20,217 bases of DNA from contig JBGFSC010000042.1 in assembly GCA_041694815.1 (NCBI GenBank), forward strand, positions 1 through 20,217. The letters are read 5' to 3'. The DNA comes from Elusimicrobiota bacterium. GTDB lineage: Bacteria; Elusimicrobiota; Elusimicrobia; UBA1565; JACRDR01. Shown one piece after another: positions 1-12,000 of the stretch. The position numbers were made by a program. The number at the start of each line of letters is the position of its first letter. Positions within the stretch are counted from its first letter, which is position 1.

Positions 1-3000
1 ATCGCTAATTTCCCTCCCGTGCTTTTAGATCACTATCCCTTCGACTTTAGCCTGCTTCAGCGTTCGTTAGCTGGTAACGATGTGCCCGACGTCCTCACTC
101 CTCCGGCAGCGGGGAGAACAGCAGCGAGTTCAGAAAATGGAGATATGGGGCGCGGTATTTTTTCCGCCAGAAATCCTCGCGCCCGGCGCGGTAGAGGATG
201 AGGAATACCCCGCGGGGGTCGGGAACTGCCGAGGCCTCCGCAAGGGAGACCCGCGCTTTCTCACCCAAGAGATACTGGGGGTCGTATTCGTAACGGGTAT
301 ATCGTACCCTAAAAGCCGTATGGCTCGAAATAAGCGTATCGGACACGAGGTGCGGATCCTCGGTGCTGCCCCAGGCGGCCATCTCGCGGCGCAATTCATC
401 GGGGGGCTTATAGCCCTTTTCATCCTTGGCTACGAATATGATGGAAAAATGGGCGCGCCCTTTGGGCTCCCGGAAGCGGACCCCGCCCTCGATGAGTTCC
501 GGCAGCCACCGCCTCGGGTATTGGCAGGAAAACATGGGATCGGCCTGGTAAGGGAGGAACGGGGCCTTGCGGGCCCAGCGCTTGAAAAAGGGGATATGGG
601 AGCACCCCGCCAGCGGGATCAAAAACGCCGACAACACAAGGAGATTTCCTCGCGCCCGCATCCGGGTCATTCTATGATTTTATCCCAACGAATAGTATAA
701 TGATCGCCCGACGATGACCGACCAATACAATCTGGGCGAGCTCACCAAGGAGATGGTCGCCAGTCGGCTCAAGAGCTTAGAGGACGCGCCCGCGGTCGCC
801 GCGGAGATCGTGAAGAAGACGATCGTGGCGGGGGTCCAAGGCACACGCCACGCGGGGCAGAGCCCGCAGGTATCGGTGCAGCAGATATGCCGCGGGGCCG
901 TCGCCGGCCTGCTGCTCATCGACAAGGATTTGCCCAAGTCGGCCGTATGCATGCTCGACAAGATGGCGGAGGCGTCCCAAGAGATCCAGCTGGCTCCCGA
1001 GGATCTGATGACCTGGGCCATGGAGGGGATCGCCAGCATGGCCAACGTCATCCCCTTAGACGTCCAAGGGCGCATCCGCGACGCGATCAACGACAAGTAC
1101 ATGGGCGCGGGCGAGGTTTTCGAAAAGCTTTGCCTACAACATAAGAAGGGCTAGGAGGATAGATGAAAGGAGATTCCAAGATCATCGAAGCGCTTAACCG
1201 AGCGCTCACGATTGAGCTGACGGCCATCAATCAGTATTTCATCCACGCGAAGATGTGCGAGAACTGGGGTTACCATCGGCTGGCGAAAAAGCATCACGAG
1301 GAGTCGATCGGAGAAATGAAGCACGCCGACAGCCTCATCGACCGGATCCTGTTCCTGGAAGGCATCCCCAACATCGCCCGTTACGACGTCATCCGCGCCG
1401 GCACCGGGGTTAAGGACCAGCTCGAGCACGACTTGAAGCTCGAGCTCGGCGGGGTCAAGGTCTATAACGCCGCCATAGACCTCGCCGTGCAGATCAAGGA
1501 CGCCGGCAGCCGCGAGATCCTGGAACATATCCTCTCCGACTCCGAGGCGCATGTCGACTGGCTGGAAAGCCAGCTCAACATCATCAAGGAAGTCGGGTTG
1601 GACAACTACTTGTCGCAGCAGTTGGAGGGAGAGGGCAAGTAGCCGAGATACTGCTGGAGCGCGGGGTGGCAGGCGGTGCAGCCGCCGCCCGCCTCGGTGT
1701 AGCGGGTGATGTCTTGAATCGTCTTGATCCGCCCGGACTCCACGGCCTCGAGTATCTCCTCCTCGCTCACTTGGAGGCAGGGGCAGACGATGGTCTTCTT
1801 TTTCCTTGGGCTCACTGATTTCTTATTGAAACGTCATTTCATTAAACCAAAAATGCGGCAGCGTCGGCAACCCCCGCTCCCTTGAAAATCGCCTTAGCGC
1901 AGGTCGACACCACCGTCGGGGATATTTCCGGCAACGCCGACAAGATCCTCTCGTTCTACCGGCGCGCCTGCGCCGAGGGGGCCCGCCTCGTCCTTTTTCC
2001 CGAGATGGCGCTCACCGGCTACCCGGCCTGGGACCTGCTGGAACAGCGCGAGTTCATCTCCGCCAATCTCGCCGCCCTCAAGCGGCTGGCGGCCGGCACG
2101 CGCCGCGCGGGGCTGTTGCTCGGCTACGTGGAGGAGAACCCCGGGCCCGGCAAACCCCTCTACAACGCGGCGGCGCTGCTCGGCCAGGGACGCGTGCTCG
2201 CCCGGCGCTTCAAGACGCTGCTGCCTACCTACGACGTCTTCGACGAGCGCCGCTATTTCCAGCCGGCCGAGCAGAACAAGCCCGTCGCCTTCGACGGCGC
2301 GCGGCTCGGCGTGACGATCTGCGAGGACGCCTGGAACGATGAGGCCTTCTGGGGCCGCCGCCTGTACGCGGAGGATCCCGTGCGCTCCCTGGCCAAGGCC
2401 GGCGCCCGGATACTGCTGAACATATCCTCTTCGCCCTTCGACCGCGGAAAGTCGGGCCTACGCCTGAAGATGATCCGAAGCCATGTCCGGAGGCTCAAGC
2501 GCCCTTTTTTCTATTGCAACGGCGTCGGGGCCAACGACGAGCTCATCTTCGACGGCAACAGCCTGGCCTTAGATTCCAGAGGCCGGCTGCTCGCCCGGGG
2601 AAGCCCGTTCGAGGAAAGCCTCGTTTTCGCCGATCCCGAAAGCCCCGCTGGGAGTCCCGACTACGAGTCGATGGAGGATGTCGAGGAGGTCTGCCGGGCT
2701 CTGCTGTTGGGACTCAAGGATTATTCCCGCAAATGCGGCTTCAAGAACGTGCTGGTGGGATTGAGCGGCGGCATCGACTCCGCCTTGGTCGCCAGCCTCG
2801 CGGCGCGCGCCCTAGGTCCCCGGCATGTGACGGGGGTGGCGATGCCCTCGATGTATTCCTCGCCCGGATCGCTCGCCGACGCCGCGCAGCTCGCGCGCAA
2901 TCTCGGCATCGAGTTTATCACCATCCCCATCACGCCCCTCTATAATGCGGCCCTCTCCTCGCTCAAGGAGGCGCTGGGTCCCGGGCCGGAGGGGGTGACG

Positions 3001-9000: not shown

Positions 9001-12000
9001 GATCTCCTTGAAGAGATCTAGCAGGCTGGCCAGTAGGGCGAGGCGGTTGTTCTTAACCGCCGCGTCCTTGTCCATGACGAGGACCTCGTTGAAAAAACGA
9101 TCGACGGGAGACTTGAGCTGCACTAACTCCTTAAGCCCTTCCTGGAAATTCTCCCCGCGCACCTTGTCCTGTACCTCTCCCTTGATGCTCCGGATGGCCT
9201 CCCACAGCGAGCGCTCCGCCTCGGCCGACAGGAGCTCCGGGCGCAACCGCCCCGCCTGCGCGTCATCGGGGGTGGCCTGCTTGAGGATATTGCGTGCCCG
9301 CTTGAAGGCCGAGGCAATGGCGGCGAAATCGGGATGCGGGCGCAGCGCGTGCACCGCGGCCAGGCGCAGCGCCGCCCGCGGCAGGTTCTCCAGGGCGCCG
9401 CCTTGGATGGCGCGGATCTCGTCAGCCCCGTAGCCGCCTTCCTCGAATACAGCCGAGGCCCGCTGCCACAGGAACTCGGCGAGCTCCCGGCGCGCCCGGG
9501 GTAGCGCCGCCGCGAGTTCCGCGGAGCGAGGGGCGAAGAGCTCCAGGGCGCGGCCCGCGGCCGCCTCCAGATCCAACGGGAGCTGACGCTCCAATACGAT
9601 GCGCACCGCACCGGCGGCCGCCCGGCGCAAGGCGAAGGGATCCTCGCTGCCCGTGGGCTTCTGGCCGATTAGGAAAAGCCCCGCCAACGTGTCGAGCTTG
9701 CCGGCCAAGGAGGCCAGCGCCGCGTCGAGGCGGGCGGGCAGGGGCGCCTTCGCCGATAACGGGAAGTGGAACTCCTCCAAGCCCATCGCGACCCGCTCGT
9801 CCTCGCCGTCGCGACGGGCGTAGACACCCCCCATCGTGCCTTGCAGCTCCGGGAACTCCTTGACCACCTCGGAGGCCAGGTCCGCGTAGGCCAGGCGCGC
9901 GATCCGTTGGACGCGTCCTAAGTCCTCCAAGGACAATTGCTTGAGGTCAACGCGCGGCGAAATCTCCCGAAAAAGCCATTCGGCCAGCGCCTCGACCCGT
10001 TCGGCCTTCTCGAGCATGCTGCCCAGCCCCTGTTGGAACGTCACGCTGCCCAGCCTCCGAAGTTTGGCCTCCAGGCGGGTCTCTAGGTCCCGCTGGAAAA
10101 AGAACTGCGCGTCGGAAAAGCGCGCGGTCAAGACCCGTTCGTAGCCTTCCTGGACCTGGGTCTGCCCTTCGGAGACACCGTCGCGCACCCCGACGAACCC
10201 GGGCTCCAGGCTCGAGTCCTCCTTAAGCAGCGGGAAAAATTTCAGCTGCTTCTTGAGCACCGACGACAAGAGCGCCTTGGGCAGGCACAGGTATTCCGGA
10301 TCGAAACGGCCGGCCACCGGGACCGGATGCTCGGTGAGGAATACGATCTCCTCGAGCAGCGCCTCGTCCTTGTCGAGCTGCGCTCCGGCGCGCCGGGCGG
10401 CCTGCTCTAGCGCCTTGGAGAGGGCCTGTCTCCGGGCGTCGATATCGGCGATGATGCAGAGATCCTTGAGCTTGGAGGCGTAGCGCTCCGCCTCCGCGAT
10501 GGGGATCGGCTTGGCGCCGACCCCCAGGCCCTGGGCCTTGTTGCCGGAGCGTATCCCGGCCAGGGAAAAGGCCACCACCTTCCTCCCGTAGAGGGCGAGG
10601 ATGTTGCGGATGGGCCGGCCGAATCGAAAGCGCGTCTGCTCCCACTCCAGGCTCTTGGGGAACTGTATCTTGGCGATGAGTTCGGGCAGCACCCGGGCTA
10701 GCACCCGGGCCGCCGGCTCTCCTTGGACCAGCAAGCGCGCCTGCAGCATCTCGCCCTTGGGCGTCGACACGACCCGCAGCTCCTCGGGCCTCACGCCGGC
10801 GGACTTCGCGAACCCCAGGGCCTGAGGGGTGTATCGCCCCTGTTCGTCCTTGAAAAGCTTGGCGCTGGGGCCGGTCCTCAGGCGCTCCTCGGAGTCGGAT
10901 TTCTCCGCGACTCCCTTCAGGATCAAGGTCAGGCGCCTGGGGGTGCCGAGCGTGATGGCCTGGGAAAATTTGAGACGCTCGGCCGAGAGCATCTGTTTGG
11001 CCAGGGCCTCCATCTGAGCCAAGGCGGGAGAGATGAAGCGCGCGGGGAGATTCTCGGTCCCGATCTCGAGGATCGCGTTTTTCATGCCGTTGGGGCCGGC
11101 TCCAGGTGGGCGGCGATCACCTTCTTGGCCAAGGCGCGCACGCGCGCGATGAGCTGCGTGCGCTCGCTCACCGAGACGGCCCCTCGGGCCTCGAGCACGT
11201 TGAAGGCGTGGCTGCAGCGTAGCACCATGTCATAGGCCGGCAGCGGCAGGCCCGCCTCGGCGAGGCGGCGGCACTCCGCTTCGCAGTCGTCGAAATGCCT
11301 CAGGAGCATGGCGGTATCGGCATCCTCGAAGTGGTACTTGGAAAACTGCCGCTCCGACTCCTTGAAAAGGTCGCCGTAGCGGAAGCGTTCGTTGTAGTCG
11401 AGATCGAAGACGTCCGCCTTTTTCTGGGAGAACATCGCCAGGCGCTCGAGCCCATAAGTGATCTCGACCGAGATCGGATCCAGCGCCACGCCGCCCATTT
11501 GCTGGAAATAGGTGAATTGGGTCACCTCCATCCCATCGAGCCATACCTCCCAGCCGACGCCCGCAGCGCCCAACGTCGGCGATTCCCAGTCGTCCTCGAT
11601 CCAACGCAGGTCATGCTTGCGGCAGTCGAGGCCGATCGCCTTGAGCGAGCGCACGTAGAGCCCCTGCACGTCGGCCGGGACCGGCTTGAGCACCACCTGG
11701 TATTGGAAATAGCGCGCCAGGCGGTTGGGGTTCTCGCCGTAGCGGCCGTCGGTGGGCCGTCGCGAGGGCTCGACGTAGGCGACGGCGGTCGGGGCCTTCC
11801 CGAGCACGCCGAAGAAGGTGGCGGGATTGAATGTCCCGGCGCCCTTTTCTAGGTCGTAAGGCTGCAGCAACAGGCAGCCCTCGCGGGCCCAATAATTCTG
11901 CAGCCGCAAAATGATCTCTTGGAAGGTCATGATCGCGCCGGGGCCAGGGACTTCTGGAACAGGCTGGTGCGCAAGGGCATCTCCAGTTGCCGCAGGATCG

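Follow-up and report, generated by a model that had tools for sequence, protein, structure and literature searches.

How does a bacterium that keeps a full quinone-dependent respiratory chain obtain its quinone, when its genome holds no recognised way of making one and when a gene set that might make one in its relatives is missing? We addressed this question in an Elusimicrobiota bacterium (GenBank assembly GCA_041694815.1), starting from a stretch of 20,217 nucleotides (contig JBGFSC010000042.1, C11 in our numbering; hereafter the window). A 2026 survey of 26,264 genomes found many lineages without a known quinone pathway and raised the prospect of further quinones yet to be discovered (PMC13386864 sections 5, 10); the supplements of that survey name the phylum Elusimicrobiota only in a legend. 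The order studied here—101 genomes, of which nearly all have complex I and none a Men or futalosine route, with a single candidate gene cassette—offers a setting in which to look for one.

A respiratory chain without a known quinone route

All the respiratory complexes listed in the genome-wide survey's note could be located on contigs: two complexes I (C20, without the EFG module, and C49, with it), SDH (C52), a bc complex (C15), alternative complex III (ACIII) with an oxidase (C25) and a second heme-copper oxidase (C14). ActC retains His126/Asp156, which align with the menaquinol ligands His141/Asp171, NuoD retains its His/Tyr, and a class 2 (quinone-type) DHODH lies in the pyr operon. The quinone-dependent enzymes are intact and stand in a genome with no known route of quinone synthesis; across the order, NuoH occurs in 100/101 genomes.

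Our searches of this genome also upheld the claimed absence of a Men, futalosine or Ubi route: missing are the genes that mark the classical menaquinone, futalosine and ubiquinone/plastoquinone-type pathways (MenD, MenA, MqnA/MqnD, Ubi genes). UbiD, MqnA/D and chorismate synthase were not found; MenD, MenG/UbiE and AroA gave nothing over cut-off, and MenA nothing over its family cut-off; ubiB, ubiX, ubiJ and aroF had no match, nor did ubiT, ubiU or ubiV. The only UbiA-family gene is cyoE (heme O synthase), in an oxidase operon. As claimed, there is no long-chain prenyl synthase: the sole trans-prenyl synthase is IspA-type, with Tyr five residues before the first Asp-rich motif (a rule on this residue is given in the available part of PMC7261888). 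The reported absence of the shikimate pathway holds for chorismate synthase, AroA over cut-off and aroF, but one dehydroquinate-synthase-family gene is present in a glycan locus (C28). With no aromatic prenyltransferase and no long-chain prenyl synthase, the genome cannot make an isoprenoid quinone along any known route. It has multiple auxotrophies (no match for trpA/B/C/E, hisG/D/I or ilvC/D) and carries MlaFED and YceI; no quinone importer is known, to go by the portion of PMC5738691 available to us.

Across the order, MqnA/D occurs in 0/101 genomes and MenD in 0/101 over cut-off. UbiD was rejected as the order's quinone route, being present in only 16/101 genomes; ubiX adjoins it in 11 of 12 loci, and none of the five genomes that have lost the cassette (see below) carries it. 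The absence of known routes is common to genomes with and without the cassette, and so does not single out the cassette.

The deletion site

The note had reported that relatives share an operon—polyprenyl synthase, PqqD, radical SAM (rSAM), MenA-like gene and two more radical SAM genes—that is missing here from its syntenic place between glyS and nadE. Both anchors lie on the one contig, and the operon is indeed absent; the deletion can now be placed directly after a hicA-like gene, at 6669 (Table 1). The hicA-like protein is 75–90% identical across G002, G005, G008 and G011, and the polyprenyl synthase follows its gene directly in G002 and in the sister genome G008, which retains the cassette, and after a gap of at most about 25 bases in G005. 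The cassette operon of this family thus begins with the hicA-like gene, and of its genes only this one remains here. The site upstream is probably the retained operon promoter, to judge by a consensus match only (3 sites found vs 0.4 in shuffles).

Table 1. Features of the window around the site of the missing cassette.
Feature	Position	Strand	Basis or remark
nadE, left synteny anchor	1882..3519	+	Pfam NAD_synthase + CN_hydrolase; upstream of hicA and cassette in G002, G005, G008
Variable filler: three unknown ORFs (3568-4008, 4794-5495, 5531-6319) and an ORF6N-domain gene (4165-4563)	3568..6319	-	
Sigma-70-like promoter match 5' of hicA-like gene	6432..6460	+	TTGCTA-17-CATAAT
hicA-like gene, 62 aa	6481..6669	+	Pfam HicA_toxin, E 7e-9
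Missing-cassette site	6670..6676	.	7 bases between hicA stop and convergent amylase stop
Alpha-amylase-family gene, fills interval	6677..8740	-	Pfam PF00128
glyS, right synteny anchor	8959..11085	-	Pfam
glyQ, recO, aldehyde dehydrogenase, small ORF, acetyl-CoA synthetase; further synteny	11082..16468	-	Gene order same in G008

From hicA to glyS the distance is 2,290 bases here, 12,232 in G002 and 23 in G011. The filler genes have no homologues in the family loci compared, from which the alpha-amylase-family gene is absent too. No cassette remnant was found at the site, and neither the window nor the whole genome holds an orthologue of an operon gene (tblastn; cassette HMMs; rSAM1, 0 matches at E ≤ 1e-40).

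The cassette in related genomes

The operon described in the note is present in relatives, but a seventh gene had been missed. The cassette (about 5.5 kb in G002) comprises a polyprenyl synthase, a PqqD-type chaperone, rSAM1, a MenA-like prenyltransferase, rSAM2, a precursor peptide and rSAM3. The peptide, of 35–45 aa, has the leader motif W-x-K/T-P-x-L-E-E-V and the invariant C-terminus VMAQPYIRFT; these last ten residues are identical across 38 distinct DNA sequences in which synonymous change is free, and the peptide was found in 34/34 loci that hold rSAM2 and rSAM3. Its presence marks the operon as a peptide-modification cassette of the PQQ/mycofactocin kind, to which a polyprenyl tail module is joined, and co-occurrence and invariance suggest that it is the substrate of the cassette enzymes.

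The chaperone belongs to the PqqD family, and a structure model of rSAM1 is nearest to the peptide maturases SkfB and PqqE. The two prenyltransferase motifs are intact in 34/34 and 33/34 proteins; the cassette enzyme scores 52–55 bits vs the MenA cut-off of 102. In 28/30 sequences of the cassette synthase, Ala stands five residues ahead of the first Asp-rich motif, the other two having no motif match. A four-gene form (peptide, chaperone, rSAM1, MenA-like) occurs in G299, L155 and L156, the polyprenyl synthase being the part that detaches. The cassette itself holds no protease, oxidase or hydroxylase for head-group release and oxidation, and the loci compared share no further fixed genes. Three candidates were rejected: a U32 hydroxylase as a fixed cassette part (in only 22/101 genomes), a precursor fused to the chaperone as its N-terminal extension (variable, missing in some genomes) and a second prenyl-synthase match in G049 (part of a different peptide cluster).

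Within the order, rSAM1 occurs in 91/101 genomes; the counts across all 101 genomes agree with the note's smaller sample. Gene content indicates that the cassette is independent of chorismate synthase, as it is retained in genera without that enzyme (g10, 6/6; g20, 3/3). Within the order its neighbours serve housekeeping or catabolism (glyS, kbl, proline dehydrogenase) and are not respiratory complexes; NapC/NirT, surveyed across the order with an anaerobic-only role of the cassette in mind, gave 35/101, all weak matches and loss genomes included. The cassette also occurs in several phyla (in that of G370, in 2/93 genomes), with named homologues that include Proteobacteria. At metagenome loci with flanking genes, an electron-transfer neighbour (NapC/NirT, MtrAB, Nqr/Rnf-like, hydrogenase, cytochrome b) stood at 24/40 vs a crude, unmatched baseline of 9%, on a tally that uses our own labels and includes related loci. 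A plasmid search gave no cassette match, no cultured carrier was identified among the homologues searched, and we found no description of the cassette in a literature search with subscription papers largely outside it.

Recurrent loss

Loss of the cassette extends beyond this genome. Four further genomes lack it at an unbroken site, and all five retain complex I, ACIII and an oxidase; to account for them, at least four independent losses are needed. This recurrence is newly seen here. The five genomes are 0.9–2.2 Mb smaller than a cassette-bearing relative, with partners of our choosing. G090 was dropped from the losses, its synthase gene running off a contig end, and G014, G067, G085 and G096 (no match, site not seen) were kept out of the count.

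Since the chain is kept after at least four independent losses, the cassette is dispensable, and its role as a quinone source can therefore only be inferred; whether it supplies the respiratory quinone is, in our judgement, an even call. Recurrence fits quinone scavenging by streamlined auxotrophs and fits equally an operon unneeded by aerobic respiration.

Discussion

The explanation that we favour, at a probability of about 0.5 for the whole, is as follows. The order's ancestor would have carried a peptide-modification cassette whose product is a lipid-tailed small molecule: the PqqD-type chaperone would hold the leader of the short ribosomal peptide, one to three radical SAM enzymes would rework its invariant tail, most likely at Tyr/Phe, and the MenA-like membrane enzyme would attach a long prenyl chain made by the operon's own synthase. 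The product would most likely be the order's menaquinone-like membrane electron carrier, a role that we hold slightly more likely than not. This genome would then have deleted the cassette 3' of the operon's first gene and would take finished quinone from neighbours or prey, running its respiratory chain and pyrimidine synthesis on it. The genome, having no aromatic prenyltransferase and no long-chain synthase, is probably dependent on outside quinone. The note's view that the deletion implies scavenging stands to this extent: with no known route and no prenyltransferase, uptake appears the simplest reading of the genes, but recurrent loss would also suit a dispensable operon.

That the loss is real is very probable. 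An assembly of 54 contigs, 97.8% complete, could have left a moved cassette in a gap, as has happened in G090, but this is very improbable here: the family site and the alternative site used in family f2 (after kbl; here C16) are both contig-internal and empty, the contig ends hold no cassette fragment beyond one chance match (E 4.5), and four more genomes have the same empty site. Still less probable is a non-isoprenoid alkylquinone made by a polyketide synthase. Type III PKS alkylquinones occur in membranes, according to an excerpt of PMC13608877, and this genome has a 2,615-aa KS-AT-ACP-KR-DH synthase; no other protein of the genome matches FabD/FabF strongly, however, so this one is probably the fatty-acid synthase, and an E. 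coli FabH query and a motif search of this genome found no stand-alone FabH/type III-like gene.

Two other readings concern what the cassette makes. Its product may not be the main respiratory carrier at all (an accessory mediator, a lipid-anchored peptide or a signal), with the order's quinone coming from outside or by an unseen route and the deletion a side loss. Repeated loss with the chain intact, the want of tailoring enzymes in the cassette and homologues in Proteobacteria, of whose genomes 98% have a ubiquinone route (PMC13386864 section 5), speak for this, yet we consider it unlikely: some 100 species would become quinone auxotrophs while 91 of them put a MenA-like enzyme and a long-chain prenyl synthase to some other use, the neighbours elsewhere are often quinol-reactive, and an unseen route would have to work here without a UbiA-family enzyme. 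Alternatively, the operon might join two modules, the synthase and MenA-like enzyme prenylating scavenged DHNA to demethylmenaquinone apart from the peptide genes, so that this genome moved from precursor salvage to whole-quinone uptake. MenA models are the best NCBIfam matches, albeit below cut-off, synthase–menA pairs without peptide genes exist in another family of the class (L142, L143), and MenA-based DHNA salvage is described in the available part of PMC5738691. This is nonetheless improbable, as the MenA-like gene has radical SAM genes on both sides and, in the four-gene form, accompanies peptide, chaperone and rSAM1 while the synthase detaches; G299 has a second, ordinary MenA-like gene, and G002 has no MenG over cut-off.

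If the carrier reading is true, a lipid-anchored, peptide-derived redox carrier exists, thousands of proteins now named MenA are misassigned, and natural deletion lineages are proof that borrowed quinone can sustain a complete aerobic chain, a useful pointer for attempts to culture them. More tentatively, at slightly under even odds, a peptide-cut, polyprenylated lipoquinone would be a further bacterial respiratory route, one that replaces menaquinone throughout this order, serves as a low-potential carrier in some Proteobacteria, Planctomycetota and Omnitrophota, and is sufficiently interchangeable with ordinary quinones to have been repeatedly dropped for borrowed ones.

Comparison with known systems

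The cassette shares with PQQ biosynthesis (PqqA, PqqD, PqqE) a precursor peptide, a PqqD-family chaperone and a radical SAM fold near PqqE, and its short precursor, with a W-x-K-P leader and invariant aromatic core, resembles PqqA. It differs in its peptide core, in having no PqqB or PqqC, in radical SAM proteins that score 97 bits vs the PqqE cut-off of 381 and show, beyond the barrel, no more than one or two conserved Cys in place of the SPASM cysteines and clusters, and in adding a membrane prenyltransferase and a prenyl synthase. Mycofactocin (MftA, MftB, MftC, MftF) likewise has a peptide-derived core finished by a transferase, and among NCBIfam models MftC ranks first or second for the cassette's radical SAM proteins; the matches nevertheless fall short (MftC 139 vs 265, MftB 20 vs 33, no MftA match), MftA ends in Val-Tyr and the cassette peptide in Thr, and the cassette's tail would be polyprenyl, not glycan.

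With the menaquinone pathways (Men, futalosine) and MenA-based DHNA salvage the cassette has in common a long-chain synthase and a MenA-like enzyme whose motifs are intact, but not MenD, MqnA/D or MenG over cut-off, and it appears to need no chorismate synthase. Quinone-using enzymes without quinone synthesis, as found here, are described in the available parts of reports on Faecalibacterium KLE1255 and other gut bacteria, quinone-less symbionts and Ca. Mancarchaeum (PMC5738691, PMC11707229, PMC5498576). Those cases, so far as these parts go, have short anaerobic chains or are reduced symbionts, whereas this 2.8-Mb genome has a full, branched aerobic chain and what it has lost is an undescribed cassette. 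Auxotrophy alone is a new case of a known kind; the novelty rests with the cassette lost at this window.

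Deletion at the cassette site

The window is the whole of contig C11 in a genome (G000) of 2.77 Mb, 54 contigs and 97.8% completeness, with filler open reading frames, a hicA-like gene and an amylase-family gene between nadE and glyS. In family members G002, G005 and G008, nadE and hicA are followed by genes for the polyprenyl synthase, the chaperone and the radical SAM enzyme rSAM1, and in G002 the series runs on unbroken via the MenA-like gene, rSAM2 and rSAM3 up to glyS. In G002 and G008, hicA ends where the synthase gene begins; in the window its stop is followed by 7 bases and the stop of the convergent amylase gene, and a promoter-like site is still present upstream of hicA. 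The genome-wide survey’s note had reported the operon absent from this syntenic place, with the concern that a moved copy might lie in a gap; the loss holds and is now placed more sharply, just behind hicA, and searches of G000, contig ends included, found no operon gene, remnant or contig-end fragment.

The HicA-family gene—75–90% conserved across the family as the operon’s first gene (L032, L109, L152 and L010)—persists through both family deletions. No HicB-like neighbour is apparent in the ORF lists, and the gene may be a regulator instead of a toxin.

Features of the window, of other G000 contigs (C) and of fetched loci (L)
Feature	Position	Remark
Bacterioferritin	window 1163-1770	small ferredoxin-like gene convergent with it
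nadE	window 1882-3519	left flank of cassette site
hicA-like gene	window 6481-6669	between nadE and glyS
glyS	window 8959-11085	right flank of cassette site
Glycan-locus genes	C28:42460-46024	ThDP enzyme, short-chain reductase, dehydroquinate-synthase-family gene
2,615-aa synthase locus	C34:6388-17306 (L329)	
13,730-aa open frame	C38:59033-100225	
Hopanoid-like cluster	C44:91738-100531	with ispA, dxs, ispH; hopanoid names as read from the sequences
Radical SAM array	C48:4800-39200	>20 co-directional genes
Chaperone	L032:12810-13259	
Foreign gene (G016)	L077:6840-8342	500 aa, same strand; interrupts cassette within rSAM3 start
MenA-like fusion and polyprenyl synthase (G120)	L140:7188-16849	at end of Nqr/Rnf-like operon
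Polyprenyl-synthase-fold gene (G049)	L292:864-2513	flanked by two Franean1_4349-type peptide genes; another peptide-plus-prenyl cluster

Respiratory chain and quinone synthesis genes

All complexes of the quinone-dependent chain described in that note were recovered as open frames: both complexes I, SDH, alternative complex III (ACIII) with oxidase, the Rieske/cytochrome b complex, and the other oxidase together with CtaA/CyoE. Both NuoD subunits retain the His pair and Tyr of E. coli NuoD, which we take to serve the quinone site. The pyrimidine operon contains a class 2 DHODH, and the genome also encodes proline dehydrogenase and a pair of proteins resembling ETF:quinone oxidoreductase. In the ACIII subunit ActC, His126 and Asp156 are retained and align to His141 and Asp171 of Roseiflexus ACIII, menaquinol ligands according to PMC7439408.

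The reported lack of a known quinone route was likewise confirmed: CyoE is the sole UbiA-family gene, and the sole trans-prenyl synthase resembles IspA and has Tyr at the chain-length position. Searches of G000 gave nothing for UbiD, MqnA/D or chorismate synthase, and MenD, MenG and AroA had no match above cut-off; one dehydroquinate-synthase-family gene lies within a glycan locus. We infer that G000 is unable to make isoprenoid quinone, whatever the missing operon’s function.

Elsewhere in G000, the 2,615-aa KS-AT-ACP-KR-DH synthase, neighboured by reductase, PPTase-like and carboxyltransferase-like genes, probably makes fatty acids; stand-alone FabH, FabD and FabF were not found in this genome.

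Cassette composition and distribution

The polyprenyl synthase, PqqD, radical SAM and MenA-like genes of the operon were as previously listed, to which a putative precursor peptide must be added: a short uncalled ORF between rSAM2 and rSAM3, with leader W-x-K/T-P-x-L-E-E-V and tail VMAQPYIRFT-stop, occurs in 34/34 loci with both enzymes. The ten tail residues are identical across 38 distinct DNA sequences, in which third positions vary. The tail pattern matches at least 120 metagenome stretches—a search that requires the invariant tail and so gives no measure of its variation—and the 80 fetched include both the full cassette and a shorter form of four genes (peptide, chaperone, rSAM1, prenyltransferase), which G299, L155 and a Deltaproteobacteria-titled record also have. 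In a phylum sample, the cassette-type enzyme occurs in 29/31 order relatives vs 1/269 others; protein names place prenyltransferase homologues in Omnitrophota, Planctomycetota, Burkholderiales, Casimicrobiaceae and Steroidobacteraceae. Chaperones encoded next to the prenyl synthase have a variable N-terminal extension of 60 aa; in G006, G009, G023 and G033 the synthase is not adjacent and the extension is missing.

Recurrent loss across the order

rSAM1 is absent from 10/101 order genomes, four of which were left out of the loss count; G090 was rejected as a contig-end gap. Besides G000, hicA lies 23 bases from glyS in G011, and G018, G049 and G050 have an unbroken interval without the cassette between genes we read as kbl and purH. 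A glyS tree of 27 genomes (G050 not among them) forces four separate losses, with G008 sister to G000 and G002 to G011; G093, a congener of G050, retains the cassette. NuoH, ActC and COX1 are all kept in the loss genomes, G018 and G050 have an IspA-type synthase only, and G049 and G050 have class 2 DHODH.

Discussion

Our best guess for the cassette product is an electron carrier. Among the 101 order genomes, NuoH occurs in 100 and the cassette in 91, with MqnA/D and MenD in none; chorismate synthase occurs in 66, and the cassette is retained where it is absent, as expected if the ring has an amino-acid origin. Beyond the order, an electron-transfer gene (NapC/NirT, MtrAB, Nqr/Rnf-like, hydrogenase, cytochrome b or, at one locus each, a U32/SCP2 pair or START protein) neighbours the cassette at 24/40 loci that include flanking genes, in a tally that scanned 106/146 flanking proteins, used our own labels, included some related loci and took its 9% baseline from G000, not from the tallied loci’s genomes.

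The losses cut both ways, fitting uptake from other cells or a product that respiration can spare, which would leave the same pattern. A caveat is that known quinone pathways are lacking with or without the cassette, so their lack does not separate the two groups. Uptake has precedent in quinone auxotrophy, documented in PMC5738691, PMC11707229 and PMC5498576. Key Trp, His and Ile/Val steps had no match in G000, which has MlaFED, YceI, nine pilin-like genes, the 13,730-aa frame and six further proteins >2,000 aa; loss genomes are smaller than relatives of our choosing. The unmatched biosynthetic steps, MlaFED/YceI, pilin-like genes, giant protein and smaller genomes are consistent with living off other cells’ material. 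Of the quinone scavenging proposed earlier, the lack of a known route and the deletion stand; that the cassette is a quinone source and that G000 takes up quinone has, jointly, about even odds.

The cassette is real and a member of no family tested: none of its proteins passes the cut-off of any NCBIfam model, and no publication on it was found in the literature searched, which mostly excluded subscription journals. Very large proteins are frequent in the phylum and tied to predation in Omnitrophota (10.1101/2023.11.21.568195). Relatives’ proteins bear the name Elusimicrobia, and the G000 respiratory chain agrees with lineage IV as described by Meheust et al. (10.1101/765248). SkfB and PqqE are the nearest structures to the predicted fold of rSAM1 (pLDDT 93), yet the enzyme has no SPASM cysteines.
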